From Candidatus Dojkabacteria bacterium (GTDB lineage: Bacteria; Patescibacteriota; Dojkabacteria; SC72), in NCBI GenBank assembly GCA_012513575.1, contig JAAZBX010000010.1:1-46168 (forward strand): a stretch of DNA of 46,168 bases. Reading direction: 5' to 3'. The notes under the pieces are model-generated. The model was not told where the DNA came from and did no database searches. It saw only the letters and a list, made by a program, of their open reading frames with translations. Each line of letters opens with the position of its first letter. The first letter of the stretch is position 1. The translations under genes and the position numbers were made by a program. Positions 31,416 through 38,305 of the stretch are shown in pieces.

Positions 31416-33056
31416 TCAAATCCCTTTAAACATATACAAATCATCTCTCTTGTATCCCAACTTCTTGTAATACTCCCTTGTACCTATTGCTGATATAACA
31501 GATATCTTTTTGAACCCTTTCTTTTTTGAAATATTCTCAGCTAACAAAACTAATTCCTTACCCAAACCCAAATGTTGAGACTCTCCTTCCTTACTCTCCT
31601 TGTCTATACCCACAACCTTCCCATACACATGTACCTCTCTAATAATGGAACTGTTACTCAATTCCTCCAGAGGATGATTCTTTGAAATGTTCTTTTTTGG
31701 TAAAGACAATCTCAAAAAACCACAAATCTTGTCTTCTGATTTAATATTGTAAGAAAGAAAAACCTCTCTACCTGTAGAAGTATTGTATTCAATCTTTTCT
31801 AAAACAATATCCTCTCTTCTCACATCCTCCCCCTTAATTTCTCTACTTCGAATATCTTCAGGCTCAATACCTTTCTTTCTCAAATACTCTTCTACAATTT
31901 GCCTAAGATTTGTTCTCTTGTTACCAGCAACAATCTCTTGAGAAGGGATATCCCTAATCACTCGTGACAACCTACAATATCTTGGAGTGGAGGCAATACA
32001 CTCACTTACTACCTCAACTAAAGTTTCTTCTGTATATGGTTTGTATTTACCTTTCTTGTACAAATCAAAAAGCTCAGTATTCGGAATAACGGAGGTAGGG
32101 TAAATCTTCATCTCATCAGGATGATATGGAGTTGTAAACAATTCCTTGTATCCTCGAATATCTTCCTTTTCAGTAGAAAGATACAAATTAGGCATCCAAT
32201 GACCATGTATTTTGAATCCAAACAGTCTCAACAACTCAAAAGCTCTCTTTGTATCCTCAACACTTCTCCCCGTCTCATTCTCTCTTAATACTTTTTCAGA
32301 AAGTGATTGAATTCCGATTTGTATCTTTGTAGCTCCAAGTCTTCTTAAATATATTAATTCACCATTTGAAAGAAAATCTGGTCTAGTTTCCAAAACCAAT
32401 CCAACATTTCTACAATATGCCTTCTCGTTTTTGATTTGTTCCTTTTCTAATTCCTCAAAGGATGAAATCTCAAAACCAGAATCCCTTGGCTCAATATATT
32501 CCTTAGAACTTTTTTTCATATCATTCAATGCTCTAAACATCTCTTTTACAAACCATATTTTGTATTCTCCAGAGTATGCGGAGAATGTCCCTCCAAGAAC
32601 AATCAATTCAATTTTCTCAATATTGTGTCCTACATTTTTGAGTGCGATTAATCTGTTAAACACCTGAGCATATGGATCGAATTTCATCTTCAATGCTCTT
32701 TGACCACCTGGTTCCGAAGCTATGTAGCTCTTAGGCATACTTCTGTCATTCGGACAAAAGATACAATTTCCTGGACAGTAGTAAGGCATCATCATTACTG
32801 TTACAACGGATACGCCAGAATTTGTTCTAGTAGGTTTCAATCGAATCCTTTTCTCAATTAAGGATATATTCTTTTTTGAAAAATCTTTTTTGACAATCAC
32901 AAACATCTTTACAAGTTCATCATTTCTGTAAAGTTGTCCATCATTTTTTTTGAATTTCCTAAGTATTTTGTTCAAGGAATTCTGATTCCACTTTTCTTCA
33001 GAAGCAATATTCTCAAAAAGTTCTTTAAATTTTTCTTTTTCTGTAATTTCTTTCAT
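31416..33056 (-). CDS. elp3: Elp3-family radical SAM/GNAT tRNA U34 carboxymethyltransferase
   Basis: TNSGVSVVTVM, CPGNCIFCP, PKSYIASEPG, KIELIVLGGTF, LETRPD, IREVHVYG, QHLGLGK and ISAIGTREYYKKLGY motifs. Confidence 0.95.
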   Translation of the reverse strand: MKEITEKEKFKELFENIASEEKWNQNSLNKILRKFKKNDGQLYRNDELVKMFVIVKKDFSKKNISLIEKRIRLKPTRTNSGVSVVTVMMMPYYCPGNCIFCPNDRSMPKSYIASEPGGQRALKMKFDPYAQVFNRLIALKNVGHNIEKIELIVLGGTFSAYSGEYKIWFVKEMFRALNDMKKSSKEYIEPRDSGFEISSFEELEKEQIKNEKAYCRNVGLVLETRPDFLSNGELIYLRRLGATKIQIGIQSLSEKVLRENETGRSVEDTKRAFELLRLFGFKIHGHWMPNLYLSTEKEDIRGYKELFTTPYHPDEMKIYPTSVIPNTELFDLYKKGKYKPYTEETLVEVVSECIASTPRYCRLSRVIRDIPSQEIVAGNKRTNLRQIVEEYLRKKGIEPEDIRSREIKGEDVRREDIVLEKIEYNTSTGREVFLSYNIKSEDKICGFLRLSLPKKNISKNHPLEELSNSSIIREVHVYGKVVGIDKESKEGESQHLGLGKELVLLAENISKKKGFKKISVISAIGTREYYKKLGYKRDDLYMFKGI

Positions 33057-33103: not shown

Positions 33104-33718
33104 ATGAGTAAACCAAAATTAACACAAGAGAGAACATTGGTTTTGATTAAACCAGATGTACTTCAAAGACAGATAGTAGGAGAAATTATTTCAAGATTTG
33201 AAAGAAAGGGTGTAAAGATTACTGCGATAAAGATGGTTAATGCTACAAAAGAGCAGGTGGGAGAACATTACGAAGGAAAGGAAGCATATTTAATTGAAAC
33301 TGGAGAGAAAGCAAAAAAGGGTGCAATAGCAAGAGGTGAGGATGTGTCTGATTGGAATTCACTTGAGAAAGGGAAACAGATTAGGCAGAGAAATATTAAC
33401 TACCTTACATGTGGTCCCATTATTGCAATTGTGTTTGAGGGTTTCGGAGTTATTTCTCAAGTTCGAAAGATTCTTGGAAGCACCAGTCCTGCAGAGGGTG
33501 ATATTGGCACTATTAGAAATGATTACTCCTTAGATACATATGCACTGGCTGATTTTATAGATAGGTCTACTATGACAATGTTACATGCGTCAGATTCAGT
33601 AGAGAATGCAGAGAGGGAGATAAAGATATGGTTTAAGGAGAGTGAAATTTGTAATGATTACGAAACGGGTGTAGAGAAAATTTTCTATGACAGTGAATGG
33701 AGTCACAAAAAGAATTAG
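33104..33718 (+). CDS. ndk: Nucleoside-diphosphate kinase
   Basis: ERTLVLIKPD, GEIISRFERKG, GTIRNDY and LHASDS (phospho-His). Confidence 0.95.
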   Translation: MSKPKLTQERTLVLIKPDVLQRQIVGEIISRFERKGVKITAIKMVNATKEQVGEHYEGKEAYLIETGEKAKKGAIARGEDVSDWNSLEKGKQIRQRNINYLTCGPIIAIVFEGFGVISQVRKILGSTSPAEGDIGTIRNDYSLDTYALADFIDRSTMTMLHASDSVENAEREIKIWFKESEICNDYETGVEKIFYDSEWSHKKN

Positions 33719-34329
33719 AGTTGTAAAATTGCATCAATCTCTTCCTGCTTAGCTTTACTGACTTTAGGTCTGTTATCTAAGAAATTCTTTAATTGTTTAA
33801 AATCTTTTTTTAGTACATCTCTCAAGTTAGGATTGTAGAGTGCAGCAGCTGGGTGATACATTGCAAAGACAGGTATGCCAGTAGGATGTTCAAATGATTG
33901 ACCGTGTGAGGCAGTAATTCCTGCATCTGGTACAAATCTTCCTAATGCATGCCTACCTAAGGTTACAATTACTCTTGGTTTTACAAAAAGTAATTCAGCA
34001 TTCAACCAAACTCTACAAGCATCTTTCTCATCTTCCTGTGGTTCTCTATTGTTTGGTGGCCTGTACTTTACAACATTGCTTACATACACTTCCTCACGAG
34101 AGAATCCAATACTCTTGAGAAGCTCGTCTAGGAATTTACCAGCAGAACCAACAAAGGGTCTACCCTGTAAATCTTCATTTCTTCCTGGAGCTTCTCCTAT
34201 GAGAAGAATTCCTGAGGAGGGTGTGGTAATTTCATATACTGGTTGAGTAGCTAATTCCTTTAATCCACAAGCGTTGTGAACAGCGTAGTATTCGTGTAGC
34301 TCTTTTAGTGTTTTGAAATCTGTTTTCAT
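33715..34329 (-). CDS. Family-4 uracil-DNA glycosylase
   Basis: IGEAPGRNEDLQGRPFVG, SNVVKYRPPNNREP, VTLGRHA and MYHPAA motifs. Confidence 0.93.
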   Translation of the reverse strand: MKTDFKTLKELHEYYAVHNACGLKELATQPVYEITTPSSGILLIGEAPGRNEDLQGRPFVGSAGKFLDELLKSIGFSREEVYVSNVVKYRPPNNREPQEDEKDACRVWLNAELLFVKPRVIVTLGRHALGRFVPDAGITASHGQSFEHPTGIPVFAMYHPAAALYNPNLRDVLKKDFKQLKNFLDNRPKVSKAKQEEIDAILQL

Positions 34330-34344: not shown

Positions 34345-34452
34345 TTTTTGTAATTTAAGAAGTTGAGGGACCTATAGTAGGTATGGTATAATATAAGTAG
34401 TATGAGGCAAATGCTTCTACAAAAATCCATAGCTCTTTAGAAAGGAAATAAG

Positions 34453-34731
34453 ATGAAAAGCAAGTTGTTCTTTATCGTAACTGTATTGTTACTCCTGATT
34501 GGGGTAGTCGGCTGTACTTCAGATTATGGTTCTGAAGCTTTTAGGTCTGAAAAAGACAAGGGAGGATATGTTTGCTTAGTTGGGCAGCAAGGAGATGTAT
34601 ACTTTAAATATATTCAATTTGTTGAATTGCCCATTTATAACGAGGCGACTCGTTATTTTGAAGCTACAAGTGTAGAAGGAACAGAATATAGTTTTTATAA
34701 TGTATCTTTATACTGTTATCCTGCAGATTAA
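34453..34731 (+). CDS. Small putative lipoprotein
   Basis: MKSKLFFIVTVLLLLIGVVGC signal with a lipobox-like VVGC; upstream TGGTATAAT at 34384-34392 and an AAAGGA SD. Confidence 0.65.
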   Translation: MKSKLFFIVTVLLLLIGVVGCTSDYGSEAFRSEKDKGGYVCLVGQQGDVYFKYIQFVELPIYNEATRYFEATSVEGTEYSFYNVSLYCYPAD

Positions 34732-34760: not shown

Positions 34761-34804
34761 AAAGCCTAGTGACTAAACACTTTTAAAAACAGTTGCTAGG
34801 CTTT
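34761..34804. terminator. Inverted repeat between convergent genes (probable bidirectional terminator)
   Basis: AAAGCCTAG (34761-34769) and CTAGGCTTT (34796-34804), touching the stop codon of the downstream dcd paralogue. Confidence 0.5.
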
Positions 34805-35256
34805 TACTTCTCTATACCCTTAGCCACCCAGAATGTAACCTGTCCTATCTTTGTATTAGGATATATCTTAACAGGTAGTACAACATGTAGTGTTAAAGTT
34901 GGTTTTTGTATTGAACCTAAGTCTATTAAATCTGCAGTAATATTTACAAATATTCCAAGTCTCCCTGTAGAAGATCTTCCCTTAATTATTGGAACAAAAT
35001 ATTTACTACCTATTGTTTCAACAGTTTTACCAATATATATTTTCTTTGGACTTAAAGTTAATCCTTGAGAAGGAATAACTACTTCTACTAACTCGTTGTC
35101 TTTAGTAGGATCCAAGACATCCTCTTTGTAGGTATACAAAACATTATCAATATGGAAATCATATGAGTTAGTTTCAATATCTTCTTCACTAAATGGATCA
35201 ATGATGATCCTTCCTTTTTCTACTTCTTTTTTTATTTGACTTCCTGTAAGAATCAT
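34804..35256 (-). CDS. dcd: dCTP deaminase/dUTPase-fold protein, paralogue A (C-terminal arm absent)
   Basis: MILTGSQI, NSYDFHI, GRSSTGRLG, TADLIDLG and IGQVTF motifs; 150 aa. Confidence 0.85.
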   Translation of the reverse strand: MILTGSQIKKEVEKGRIIIDPFSEEDIETNSYDFHIDNVLYTYKEDVLDPTKDNELVEVVIPSQGLTLSPKKIYIGKTVETIGSKYFVPIIKGRSSTGRLGIFVNITADLIDLGSIQKPTLTLHVVLPVKIYPNTKIGQVTFWVAKGIEK

Positions 35257-35774
35257 TTTGCTTTTTGATTATATAGCTGACTTGGGAAGGGTTCATTCTT
35301 TGTTGCGTAAAACTCAACATCTTCAATATTCTTTTCCCCCTTAGTGTCCCAAAATGTCACTTGGCCTATCTCCATATTAGGATATATTCTTAAATTTTGC
35401 ACGACAGTAATTTCCAGTGTCCACCTATGCTCTTTCCCCAATTGACCTAGATCTGCTGTAATCTGAAGAAACATTCCTAATTTTGCAATTCTGTTTCTTC
35501 CAATTAAGGAGGTTACATATTCTTTGCTTCCAATTGTCTCAACCGTTGTTCCAAGGTAAAGCCTTCTAGGTTCTAAAACATATCCCTTCTGTGGTATTTT
35601 AATTTTCCTTGTTTTCGGTTTCCTCTTCTTGTCCCCTACATCCAAGACTTCAACTAATGTATCTCCTAAATGATATACATAGCTGTTTGGCTTAATACAT
35701 TCCTCATCAAATGGTTTAATCACAATATTTCCATTCTTTACCTGTTTCTTAATTTCCTTCCCAGTAAGTATCAT
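35253..35774 (-). CDS. dcd: dCTP deaminase/dUTPase-fold protein, paralogue B
   Basis: MILTGKEI, PNSYVYHL, GRNRIAKLG, TADLGQLG, WTLEIT, IGQVTF and a C-terminal Y...P.PS.LY arm. Its stop overlaps the next start (ATGA, 35253-35256). Confidence 0.8.
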   Translation of the reverse strand: MILTGKEIKKQVKNGNIVIKPFDEECIKPNSYVYHLGDTLVEVLDVGDKKRKPKTRKIKIPQKGYVLEPRRLYLGTTVETIGSKEYVTSLIGRNRIAKLGMFLQITADLGQLGKEHRWTLEITVVQNLRIYPNMEIGQVTFWDTKGEKNIEDVEFYATKNEPFPSQLYNQKAK

Positions 35775-35816
35775 ATTTCATTATATATATTCCTCCATAT
35801 CGTGTAAAATATGCAT

Positions 35817-36794
35817 ATGAACAAAGAGATTGTTTGGGGTACTTCTTTCTCCCCAGAATATTCGCAATATTTGGGAGACAGAAATCCACTAGAGACTTTG
35901 AAGATAGTCAGAGAAAAATTGAATATACAAGACTTTAGATTAGGTCTTCGATGGAATACAGTTGAAAAGAATGGGAAAGTAAGTTTGGAATTTTACGAGA
36001 AATATATTGAGTATCTTTTAAAAAACAATTGTAGTATCTGTCTCAATGTAGGTCCAATCAAGGTTATGAGATGGCCGGAAGAACATATTCCCGAATATAT
36101 TAATGTAAAAAAACGAAGTGTTGTGAAAAAAGATTCTGAATTAGCAAAGTATGCAATTGAATATTTTAATAAGCTTCTTGAATTAATTAAAAAAGAATAT
36201 GGTAAAGAAAAAGGCATTTCTTTTCAGATAGAAAATGAATGTTACAACAGATTTGGTCATAAGCGATTACTTATGTCAGATGAATACTTGTTAGAAATCG
36301 CAACTATCCTTCATGAATATTTTCCAAAGAACAAGTTAATGATGGATAGTTCTGCAAGAAAGGATTTAAGAAAGTTAATGCATCTTTTTGACCTTTTCGT
36401 AGAGAATAAATTGTATGAATGGGAACAGCTTACCCTTGGTATTAATTACTACTCAATGATTCCAGAAATAAGTCCGTTCTTAAAAAGAATTGAAGCTTTG
36501 TCTTTTTATCTCCCTTGGAGTATGCCTCTATCAAGGTTAAAGAAAATTCAGGAAAGAAACCATTTTGATTTAGAAATCTCAGAAGCTCAATTTGAACCAT
36601 GGGGGAAAATGACTCTGCCGGGGAACTCATTAGAGGAATTAAAATATGTTGTTAAACATGGTTTAAAGATATTTCCAGAAAGTTACACTTACAGAGTAAT
36701 TAGACTATGGGGAGTGGAAGAATTTGGACTCAAAATGAAAGAGAAGAAGTTAACTTCAGAGCATAAGGATATCATCAAAGAATTCTTTTGCTAA
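35817..36794 (+). CDS. Putative glycoside hydrolase, clan GH-A TIM barrel (GH42/GH5-like)
   Basis: GTSFSPEY, RLGLRWNTVE, FQIENE (acid/base candidate) and ISEAQFEPW (nucleophile candidate). ATG at 35811 or 35817. Confidence 0.65.
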   Translation: MNKEIVWGTSFSPEYSQYLGDRNPLETLKIVREKLNIQDFRLGLRWNTVEKNGKVSLEFYEKYIEYLLKNNCSICLNVGPIKVMRWPEEHIPEYINVKKRSVVKKDSELAKYAIEYFNKLLELIKKEYGKEKGISFQIENECYNRFGHKRLLMSDEYLLEIATILHEYFPKNKLMMDSSARKDLRKLMHLFDLFVENKLYEWEQLTLGINYYSMIPEISPFLKRIEALSFYLPWSMPLSRLKKIQERNHFDLEISEAQFEPWGKMTLPGNSLEELKYVVKHGLKIFPESYTYRVIRLWGVEEFGLKMKEKKLTSEHKDIIKEFFC

Positions 36795-36859
36795 AGTGTT
36801 GATTGATTTTGATGGTTTTTTCAATTAGAATTAGATTAATATATAAGCAAAATCTTAAC

Positions 36860-38305
36860 ATGGGAGAAAACAACAAGCATGATGAGAAGAAGATTACTCC
36901 AAGAAAGAGTGATTTCTCGCAGTGGTATTTAGATGTAATCAGAGTCGCTGATTTAGTTGAGCATGGACCAGTAAAGGGTACCATGATTATCAAACCTTAC
37001 GGGTATGCAATTTGGGAGAATATTCAAAAAGAGTTTGACAAAAGAATTAAAGAGACAGGAGTTGAAAATGCATACTTTCCTCTTTTCATCCCCTATGAAT
37101 TTCTTCAGAGAGAAAAATCACATGTTGAGGGATTTTCTCCAGAGGTCGCAGTTGTAACACATGCGGGAGGAGAAGAATTGACAGAACCATTCGTTGTTAG
37201 ACCAACATCTGAGACCATAATGTACGATGCTTACTCTAGATGGGTGACCTCTTACAAAGATCTACCAGTATTGATAAATCAGTGGGCAAACGTAGTAAGG
37301 TGGGAAGTAAGACCTAGACTGTTTTTAAGGAGTACAGAATTTCTTTGGCAGGAAGGTCATACTGCCCATGCAACAGCTAAGGAGGCAGATGAAAGAGCCC
37401 AGTTAATGTTAAGTATTTACAAGAAATTTGCCGAGGAATTTTTAGCAATGCCTCTTTATACTGGAAAGAAAACAGATTCTGAAAGATTTGCTGGTGCAGA
37501 TATTACATATACAACAGAAGCCATGATGCAAGATGGTAAGGCACTTCAGTTTGCAACATCTCATAACTTGGGAGATAAGTTTGCAAAGGTTTTTAATTTG
37601 AAATTTACTGATGAGAATGGAGATACAAAGTACTGTTATCAAACGAGTTGGGGAATGAGTACAAGAAGTATTGGTGGATTGATCATGGTACACAGTGATG
37701 ATAGAGGGTTGGTATTGCCTCCAAAGGTAGCTCCTGTTCAAGTAGTTGTTGTCCCTGTTTGGCCAAAAGAGGAGTTTAAAAATGAAGTGAATAGTGAAGT
37801 TGAAAAAATCATGAATGAATTGAAAGTAGACTTTAGAGTAAAAGCAGATCTTTCTGATGAGCGAGTAGGGGAGAAGTTGTACAAATGGGAGAAGAAGGGT
37901 GTCCCGGTAAGACTTGAAATTGGACCAAGAGATATAAAGGAAGGATGTGTAGTACTTTCAAGAAGAGATACCGGAGAGAAAATCACAGTAAAACGAGATG
38001 AACTTAAAAAGAAGATTTTTAACCTGTTAGAAGAGATACAGGAGAATCTTTACAGAAATGCTCTAAAGAGAATGGAAGAGAATACTGAGAGAGTAGAGAC
38101 TTATGACGATTTTAAGAAAGCAATTGATAACAAGAAATTTGTTCTTGGGTATTGGGCTGGAAGTAGTGAGGATGAAAAGCAATTAAAGACTGAGACAATG
38201 GCAACAGTAAGATGTTTCCCATTTGAGCATGAAGATGAAAGTGGAAAATGCTTCTATACAGGTAAAGATGGTGCAAAACTTGCCCTTTTCGCAAGATCCT
38301 ATTAA
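36860..38305 (+). CDS. proS: Prolyl-tRNA synthetase (archaeal/eukaryote-like family I)
   Basis: DFSQWYLDV, HVEGFSPE, VRPTSET, QWANVVRWE..PRLFLRSTEFLWQEGHT, QTSWGMSTR and terminal ARSY. ATG at 36860. Confidence 0.97.
   Translation: MGENNKHDEKKITPRKSDFSQWYLDVIRVADLVEHGPVKGTMIIKPYGYAIWENIQKEFDKRIKETGVENAYFPLFIPYEFLQREKSHVEGFSPEVAVVTHAGGEELTEPFVVRPTSETIMYDAYSRWVTSYKDLPVLINQWANVVRWEVRPRLFLRSTEFLWQEGHTAHATAKEADERAQLMLSIYKKFAEEFLAMPLYTGKKTDSERFAGADITYTTEAMMQDGKALQFATSHNLGDKFAKVFNLKFTDENGDTKYCYQTSWGMSTRSIGGLIMVHSDDRGLVLPPKVAPVQVVVVPVWPKEEFKNEVNSEVEKIMNELKVDFRVKADLSDERVGEKLYKWEKKGVPVRLEIGPRDIKEGCVVLSRRDTGEKITVKRDELKKKIFNLLEEIQENLYRNALKRMEENTERVETYDDFKKAIDNKKFVLGYWAGSSEDEKQLKTETMATVRCFPFEHEDESGKCFYTGKDGAKLALFARSY

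Follow-up and report, generated by a model that had tools for sequence, protein, structure and literature searches.

Two overlapping dCTP deaminase-like genes in a Dojkabacteria contig encode candidate subunits of one hetero-oligomeric enzyme

The overlapping gene pair and its motifs

A contig of Candidatus Dojkabacteria bacterium (JAAZBX010000010.1, assembly GCA_012513575.1) was analysed over 46,168 bp, and this whole stretch is referred to here as the window. The subject of the analysis is a pair of adjacent genes of the dCTP deaminase (DCD) family located on its minus strand. The upstream gene, B, lies at 35253..35774 (minus strand) and encodes a protein of 173 amino acids. The downstream gene, A, lies at 34804..35256 (minus strand) and encodes 150 amino acids. 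Both were taken from the list of open reading frames (ORFs) and assigned to the family by PF22769. The two genes overlap by the four bases ATGA (35253..35256, minus strand), in which the start codon of A lies over the stop codon of B. The overlap had been described in a first-pass annotation made from the sequence and was found where that annotation placed it, at 35256..35253. An overlap of this kind would allow translational coupling of B and A. No Shine-Dalgarno sequence is evident for A and its start codon lies inside the ATGA, so translation of A is probably dependent on coupling to B. A promoter-like TTTACA-17-TATAAT was found at 35780..35808 (minus strand), where it is the top site in the region with 11 of 12 consensus matches. 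On this consensus match it is the likely promoter of the B-A operon. Its 3' end is 5 nt ahead of the ATG of B, and the B mRNA may therefore be leaderless.

A and B share 48% identity over 147 residues (E 2e-45). Both matched PF22769 (dCTP deaminase-like) over residues 2-143, with E values of 9.5e-33 for A and 2.7e-30 for B, and both scored far above the Pfam cut-off of 27 bits. Against TIGR02274, the NCBIfam equivalog for dCTP deaminase, A scored 82.4 bits and B 59.2 bits, both under the cut-off of 92.8 bits. A also weakly matched PF06559 (E 0.005). B and A were modelled as monomers with AlphaFold2 (AF2), with predicted local distance difference test (pLDDT) scores of 87 and 89, respectively. 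In Foldseek the models matched 4xjc, 4a6a, 2qlp and 1ogh best, with template modelling (TM) scores of 0.81-0.87 (0.84-0.87 for 4xjc, 4a6a and 2qlp). The best match of B was 4xjc (TM 0.87) and A matched 2qlp and 4xjc. In the models both proteins fold as jelly-roll barrels like those of the dCTP deaminase-dUTPases (DCD-DUT), with the bifunctional DCD-DUT enzymes closest. By sequence and fold A and B belong to the DCD branch of the dUTPase superfamily. Neither protein matched the PADLOC defence-system models at E <= 0.01, and membership of a defence system was rejected.

The catalytic motifs were called from alignments to the Dcd proteins of Mycobacterium tuberculosis and Escherichia coli (MG1655). 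In A, motif I (NSYD) is intact and includes Asp33. Motif II (GRSSTGR) is also intact, with equivalents of E. coli Ser111, Ser112 and Arg115 present (Arg93, Ser94, Ser95 and Arg98 in A). Motif III reads LIDLG, with Asp111 corresponding to E. coli Asp128, and continues into TLTL, with Thr122 in place of Glu138. The final strand in the A model spans residues 136-144. The protein stops just past this last core strand and the C-terminal lid is absent. In B the pattern is different. Motif I is degenerate (NSYV), as is motif II (GRNRIAK), in which Ser has changed to Asn, Ser to Arg and Arg to Lys. Motif III of B reads GQLG, with Gln at the Asp128 equivalent, and the WTLEI that follows keeps the catalytic Glu121. 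B has the family-specific residues His116 and Trp118 and a 27-residue C-terminal tail (residues ~147-173), which is the lid. Unlike Dcd (IDPGW/F), the B pocket lacks both the Asp and an aromatic residue following the Gly. These motif states, and the C-terminal arm present in B and missing from A, agree with the first-pass annotation.

Ser, Arg and Glu in one chain define the Dcd equivalog, and neither A nor B has all three. The full catalytic set exists only across both chains. The DCD-DUT enzymes are defined by Asp and Glu in the same motif III site; B has Gln and Glu in this site, and A has Asp and Thr.

Distribution, degenerate branch and fused forms

The pair was surveyed in three scans, which covered one genome per GTDB species, and by contig look-ups. 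A locus was counted as the module when a B-type gene (LG[QHN]xG..H.WTLE) directly preceded an A-type gene ([IV]D[ILV]G..TL[QMT]) on one strand, with the two overlapping or almost overlapping. The window falls within this definition, with GQLGKEHRWTLEI in B, IDLGSIQKPTLTL in A and the ATGA overlap. In total 153 distinct B-A pairs were found in at least 17 phyla. These included Pseudomonadota (mostly Holosporaceae and other Alphaproteobacteria), Bacillota, Actinomycetota, Saccharimonadota, other lineages of the Candidate Phyla Radiation (CPR), Verrucomicrobiota, Chlamydiota, Bacteroidota and Acidobacteriota. In every locus uncut by a contig end, B directly preceded A on the same strand, and the pairing is obligate. 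The overlap was exactly 4 bp in 54 of the 81 pairs surveyed for it, and in nearly all loci of the degenerate Dojkabacteria clade described below. Across pairs, the pairwise distances of A correlate with those of B (r = 0.79, Mantel p = 0.001), which indicates that the two genes were inherited together.

Four loci of the survey (L099, L100, L147 and L101) were considered as cases of A standing alone without B. This was rejected, as tblastn showed an intact B frame in each. The apparent absence of B was explained by a non-canonical start codon or by a contig end. In L099:2703-3224, L100:3477-3992 and L147:3483-4004 the B frame is conserved and the codon aligned to Met1 is AGC or AGT. No in-frame ATG, GTG or TTG lies upstream, so the start must be non-canonical (ATA or ATT is nearby).

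RSSxxR is present in the A-type homologues, as is Asp in motif III ([IV]D[ILV]G), with Gln, Met or Thr replacing Glu. Most A proteins have Gln in this position and none has Glu. The B-type homologues have Glu in an invariant H.WTLE context, with Gln, His or Asn replacing Asp. Motif II and the C-terminal tail are retained in both proteins of nearly all pairs. In the alignments, the complementarity that holds for the whole family is therefore limited to Asp in A and Glu in B. Motif II of B also decays independently in Holosporaceae, where it reads GKTSLGR, GKTELGK or GKASLGS.

In a FastTree phylogeny rooted on E. coli Dcd the B proteins formed one clade (support 0.67). Monophyly of A was not upheld, as A was paraphyletic around B with weak support (0.57), and this leaves the order of duplication unsettled in the tree. 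A third DCD paralogue was seen beside the pair at five loci (L037:4062-4643, L046:4060-4641, L085:4027-4590, L086:4087-4677 and L144:2907-3452). It has 187-196 amino acids, GRSTLARL, and Val or Ile at the Glu position. Another locus, L074:2475-3962, has three diverged DCD copies. From their sequences the loci with three paralogues may represent the same principle realised with three genes.

The window belongs to a degenerate clade of approximately 16 Dojkabacteria species (L087-L101, L147, L150 and the window). A proteins of this clade are 146-150 amino acids long and tail-less. Motif II of B appears as RNRIAK, RNSIAK, RNKIGK, RSRIGK, RARTGK or MDKTSK. The clade was compared column by column with the other B and A proteins. 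The B positions that are invariant elsewhere and changed or relaxed here are N28 and N33 in motif I, S94, S95, G97 and R98 in motif II, and in addition G5 and one Tyr of the tail. No catalytic-motif position is relaxed in the A proteins of the clade; the lid alone is gone. The B tail is better conserved in this clade than among other B proteins. Within the clade the ratio of nonsynonymous to synonymous substitution (dN/dS) has a pairwise median of 0.15 in B and 0.12 in A; purifying selection acts on both genes and neither is a pseudogene. Because the motif loss is kept in approximately 16 species and the relaxed sites are almost all in motifs I and II, the pattern is not due to chance. As a clade-wide pattern of A and B, the alignments show the losses of motif II and of the lid added to the Asp/Glu complementarity in the Dojkabacteria branch only.

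The first-pass annotation had asked whether pairs of this kind co-occur with the same reciprocal losses. This was borne out for the pairs, which are widespread, and for the Asp/Glu split, which is family-wide; it did not hold for the motif II and lid losses outside the Dojkabacteria branch. Its concern that A might be a local pseudogene, with homologues that normally carry the Glu and the tail, was answered by the absence of this Glu from all homologues of A and by the tail-less form being kept at the low dN/dS across the clade.

Two contigs of the clade, of 645 and 749 kb, are approximately the size expected of a whole genome for the group, and only this pair was found on them. The metagenome-assembled genome STF2_92 contains a normal pair, with motif II and lid in both proteins, plus a degenerate pair (L050/L154 and L150/L162, respectively). 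The contigs of the two pairs have similar coverage (4.7x and 4.2x). The double pair is either a genuine second copy or the result of a mixed bin.

A profile search of 1.84 billion representative proteins was carried out for multi-domain DCD proteins. P0352 (466 amino acids) comprises two A-like domains followed by a B-like domain. Both A-like domains are short and without Glu or lid. The B-like domain has lost motif II (GLESMAA), carries DLGHTGVRHRWTLEI (WTLEI kept) and has the lid. The A versus B hidden Markov model (HMM) scores of the three domains were 53 vs 36, 38 vs 22 and 77 vs 111, which supports the order A-A-B. In P0257 (347 amino acids) an A-like domain that carries GRSSTGR and is devoid of Glu and lid precedes a B-like one, in which motif II is lost, LGHTGFNGHWVLEI (HWVLEI) is present and the lid is retained. 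P0241 and P0243 have three domains each and only one complete composite site. P0352, P0257 and P0243 (in its cluster) were each found on more than one contig or source, and P0241 on a single NCBI contig. Fused A-like and B-like chains with the same reciprocal losses would act as Rosetta stones for a heteromer, and the domain order of P0352 suggests an A2B stoichiometry.

Neighbouring genes in the window and in other phyla

Downstream of A lies a gene of the uracil-DNA glycosylase (UDG) superfamily (33715..34329, minus strand; PF03167, E 8.4e-34) with a GEAPG motif of the family-4 type. It is followed by ndk, encoding nucleoside diphosphate kinase (33104..33718, plus strand; PF00334, E 1.1e-40). 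Both are at most 1.7 kb from the pair. The UDG gene and the end of A overlap in relatives L099 and L100, so that B, A and UDG make up one operon, and synteny of UDG with the pair was seen in 19 loci. ndk is near the pair in 18 related loci and is a conserved neighbour in the Dojkabacteria clade. In relatives ogt is located upstream of the pair, so that the neighbours in the clade of the window are ogt, a family-4-type UDG gene and ndk. This neighbourhood fits dUTP/uracil handling. The first-pass annotation had noted the closeness of ndk and a uracil-DNA glycosylase and had suggested a uracil/dUTP-handling module; the Pfam matches confirm the former and the conserved ogt/UDG/ndk neighbourhood suits the latter.

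Several other features surround the pair. A 92-amino acid ORF with a lipoprotein-like signal (MKSKLFFIVTVLLLLIGVVGC) lies at 34453-34731 on the plus strand and has its own promoter-like site at 34363-34392. It separates A from the UDG gene, opposite in strand to both; in relatives these two genes overlap directly. A 327-amino acid ORF (35811-36794, plus strand) is divergent from B and had no Pfam match. In most relatives its position is occupied by ogt (MGMT), on the strand of B. An Elp3-like radical S-adenosylmethionine (SAM) protein of 546 amino acids (31416-33056, minus strand; Radical_SAM and Radical_SAM_C) is encoded by a conserved neighbour across this Dojkabacteria clade. Elp3 homologues are uncommon in bacteria. 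proS (36803..38305) is one gene from the B-A pair.

Three conserved cassettes containing the pair were found in other groups. The first consists of a NrtR-like NUDIX regulator, a dNMP-kinase-like P-loop protein, a 398-amino acid radical SAM protein whose gene overlaps B, followed by B, A and a histidine phosphatase. It occurs in Bacillota and Muribaculaceae (L020, L024, L028-L036, L057, L172, L175 and L180; for example L180:2808-5599). We neither know of nor found a published system of the same composition as this cassette. The second consists of a protein of 361 amino acids resembling the catalytic core of alanyl-tRNA synthetase (AlaRS), a SAM methyltransferase (273 amino acids, 2 nt before B), B, A and Peptidase_S66. 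It was found at L004/L005:2587-6550 and approximately 30 other loci, in Saccharibacteria, normal Dojkabacteria, Nomurabacteria and some Proteobacteria. Peptidase_S66 is the family that includes the microcin C immunity protein MccF. The third, in Streptomyces and Kitasatospora (L003:5192-11296 and others), consists of TauD, B, A, PIG-L, WbqC, GT4 and a protein resembling prolyl-tRNA synthetase (ProRS). An Erm-like rRNA methyltransferase gene adjoins it. From its gene content the third cassette resembles a biosynthetic gene cluster equipped with genes for self-resistance. A connection of the pair to ascamycin was also considered, but papers on ascamycin make no mention of a deaminase and so provide no direct link. 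In relation to its ProRS-like gene, the nearness of proS to the pair in the window is weak evidence in so small a genome.

Next to the pair, a 674-amino acid protein turns up repeatedly in soil Actinomycetota, Verrucomicrobiota and Acidobacteriota (L133, L137, L139-L149 and L184-L200; for example L200:5045-7069). It had no Pfam match. By eye its N-terminal part is HD-like and a TIR-like 'FVSFSHQD' is located near its C-terminus.

A proposed mixed trimer and its relation to known enzymes

The active site of E. coli Dcd was reportedly found by Johansson and colleagues in 2005 to be built from two subunits, with the C-terminus folding back and not swapping. In the superfamily motif III is contributed by one subunit, with motifs I, II and IV coming from the adjacent subunit (PMC12524310). 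With motif III and motifs I and II drawn from adjacent subunits, only the B/A interface would be complete and B3 would have no complete site. From this pattern of motifs A and B are likely to be subunits of one obligate hetero-oligomeric DCD-fold enzyme, most probably a mixed trimer that deaminates dCTP. This is close to what the first-pass annotation had proposed, namely that neither homotrimer is complete and that an A/B mixture could rebuild one site, and both the motif states and the subunit geometry support it. The geometry also removes an objection it had foreseen, that complementation would be impossible if Ser/Arg and Glu came from the same chain, as they come from adjacent subunits (PMC12524310).

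In the proposed enzyme B would supply the base face of the site, with Glu121, His116, Trp118 and the lid. A would supply the phosphate face, which handles the triphosphate and Mg, with Asp33, Arg93, Ser94, Ser95 and Arg98. The sole complete deaminase site would thus be formed by motif III of B and motifs I and II of A. As Ser, Arg and Glu would be brought together at this site, its most likely activity is to deaminate dCTP, giving dUTP. The phosphate face of B and the lid of A would no longer be used and would have decayed. In an A2B trimer an additional site between motif III of A and motif II of the other A, with Asp and without Glu, could hydrolyse dUTP to dUMP. Such a trimer could carry out both steps of bifunctional DCD-DUT at two different kinds of site. 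In the window this A/A site would be lid-less. The third interface, formed by motif III of A and motif II of B, would lack everything that has been lost; as it would be unused in A2B, this fits the pattern of decay.

The distribution of the two reactions is consistent with work on related enzymes. Replacement of the motif III Asp by Asn in human dUTPase abolishes dUTP hydrolysis and leaves binding unaffected (PMC4827122). As B is without this Asp, the B/A site should not hydrolyse the triphosphate. The title of structure 3gf0 describes the E145Q variant of the Methanocaldococcus jannaschii enzyme crystallised with pyrophosphate. By analogy this would be consistent with hydrolysis being retained at the Glu-less A-type sites. 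A division of deaminase and dUTPase functions between the two proteins had been raised in the first-pass annotation as an alternative to the heteromer. It survives as the probable way in which the ancestral heteromer works, and falls as a rival to the heteromer.

A fuller scenario is put forward tentatively. The pair would be a natural unfused heterotrimer of the form A2B, which deaminates at the site of B motif III and A motif II and hydrolyses the triphosphate at the site of A motif III and A motif II. dUTP could then pass between sites without entering the pool. The Dojkabacteria branch would have gone furthest, deleting every element of the unused third interface, and other phyla would have recruited the heteromer into nucleotide-tailoring or aminoacyl-nucleotide cassettes.

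Several points weigh against a mixed trimer that deaminates dCTP. That the lid of Dcd would act with motif III of its own chain is argued from the reported two-subunit site of E. coli Dcd and by analogy with non-swapped dUTPases, in which the C-terminal region works with motif III of its own subunit (PMC12524310). A trimer cannot be 1:1, yet translational coupling suggests approximately equal synthesis of A and B; the candidate stoichiometries are A2B, AB2 and a mixed hexamer. In the majority of module members neither protein has lost motif II or the lid, so B3 and A3 homotrimers are possible there. The A-like domains of P0352 are themselves partly degenerate (NKSGTAR and NKAATAA). P0257 and P0241 come from more distant DCD branches, and their A and B HMM scores are ambiguous. 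The fusions other than P0352, being from distant DCD branches, show the principle in the fold and are not proof for this pair. Finally the sugar pocket of B, with neither Asp nor an aromatic residue after Gly, is unlike that of all characterised Dcd proteins, and the substrate may not be dCTP.

It is unlikely that the two proteins form separate homotrimers encoded in one operon, B3 as a monofunctional dCTP deaminase and A3 as a DCD-fold dUTPase as in archaea, coupled only metabolically in the conversion of dCTP to dUTP and dUMP. Family-wide B has Glu and no Asp, A has Asp and no Glu, and motif II and the lid are usual in both, so that each could in principle form complete sites as a homomer for a single reaction. 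Structures have been solved for archaeal DCD-fold dUTPases of approximately 143-158 residues (2zdc, 8y1w and 9ln0), which makes a 150-amino acid dUTPase feasible, and consecutive enzymes often share an operon. In the degenerate clade, however, B is without the Ser111, Ser112 and Arg115 equivalents and these positions drift freely, yet its dN/dS is 0.15 and its motif III and lid are highly conserved. The E. coli variants R115A, R115Q and S111C were reportedly inactive in the work of Johansson and colleagues (2005) and Thymark and colleagues (2008), and with motif II mutants inactive B3 should be dead. The fusions join A-like and B-like domains with the same losses, and the strict gene order and 4-bp overlap across phyla exceed the usual linkage of pathway neighbours.

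It is similarly improbable that a heteromer of A and B acts on another cytosine nucleotide (CTP, or one that is modified or altered in the sugar) as a tailoring or pool-manipulating enzyme, with the Dojkabacteria copy a domesticated remnant of a cassette. The motif III Asp of Dcd and dUTPases binds the 3'-OH, and the aromatic residue after Gly excludes the 2'-OH and so ribonucleotides; B pockets lack both. The conserved cassettes in other phyla look non-housekeeping, like nucleotide tailoring, and the non-degenerate Dojkabacteria pairs themselves sit in the cassette with the AlaRS-like protein, methyltransferase and S66 peptidase. In the clade of the window, however, the neighbours ogt, family-4 UDG and ndk fit dUTP/uracil hygiene, and the finding of only this pair on the 645- and 749-kb contigs argues for a core role. 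The Glu/Ser/Arg set of dCTP deaminase reassembles exactly, and the PADLOC models gave no match.

A role for one partner as a non-catalytic regulatory or scaffold pseudo-enzyme (for example a dTTP-sensing A), or decay of the pair without an enzymatic role, is very improbable: neither protein by itself has all the residues that E. coli Dcd requires, and DCD enzymes are regulated by dTTP via the trimer channel (PMC4827122), but the dN/dS of 0.12-0.15 and the conservation in approximately 16 species rule out decay, and A retains precisely the catalytic and phosphate-binding residues, which fits catalysis better than pure regulation.

If the proposed heteromer is correct, this well-studied enzyme family would gain a new quaternary form, a heterotrimer encoded naturally by two genes, and the pair would cleanly illustrate subfunctionalisation acting on the halves of an active site. 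Annotation would also have to change, as hundreds of genomes, including small CPR and Holosporaceae genomes, list two 'dCTP deaminases', neither of which may be active alone. In minimal CPR genomes it may be through this pair alone that thymine deoxynucleotides are obtained from those of cytosine. The Dojkabacteria version has the most to tell, since inactivity is predicted for its homomers and complementation would be all-or-none. Recruitment of the pair into cassettes with radical SAM, kinase and AlaRS-like proteins points to nucleotide chemistry so far undescribed.

To our knowledge the dUTPase superfamily (dUTPase, Dcd and DCD-DUT) is usually described as homotrimeric; fused forms, from herpesviruses and from a single Drosophila species, are the exceptions that have been recognised. 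No two-gene or heteromeric dCTP deaminase was described in the literature searched, and PMC5593958 and PMC3950489 contained nothing usable on subunit contributions. Dcd and DCD-DUT share PF22769 with A and B and are their best sequence and fold matches in the PDB, and their Ser, Arg, Glu, Asp and lid can all be assembled from A and B. Known enzymes form homotrimers or homohexamers in which the three sites are identical and complete, whereas here the residues are split over two paralogues. The archaeal DCD-fold dUTPases (Sulfolobus tokodaii 2zdc, T. pacificus 8y1w and 'P45' 9ln0) are short like A, with 143-158 amino acids, and are a possible model for A-type sites; they differ in being homotrimers and rank below DCD-DUT as sequence and fold matches.

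Fused enzymes offer further comparisons. The two-domain '2'-deoxycytidine 5'-triphosphate deaminase' of Alphaproteobacteria (PF06559 and PF22769; 2r9q from Agrobacterium tumefaciens) also has two diverged copies of the fold, and 2r9q was a fold match. It is fused and distantly related (profile E 0.58), and on this basis was rejected as a direct B-A fusion. The pseudo-heterotrimeric dUTPase of Drosophila virilis and engineered covalent human hybrids are trimer-like units of non-identical modules, as is proposed here. The three domains of the D. virilis enzyme are near-identical, however, with all sites complete, and the human hybrids are artificial. Asymmetric dUTPase trimers with one or two inactivated sites are still functional (PMC12524310; PMC4827122). 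The monomeric dUTPases of herpesviruses arose via duplication and fusion (PMC12524310). As in the B-A pair, duplication was followed by reciprocal loss of motifs, and the fused domains of, for example, the Epstein-Barr virus enzyme form a single active site. These are enzymes of eukaryotic viruses, belong to the dUTPase branch and consist of one chain, whereas the pair described here comprises two coupled bacterial genes of the DCD branch whose products are probably still trimer-like. The herpesvirus monomeric dUTPase is the closest functional analogue of the proposed B-A enzyme.

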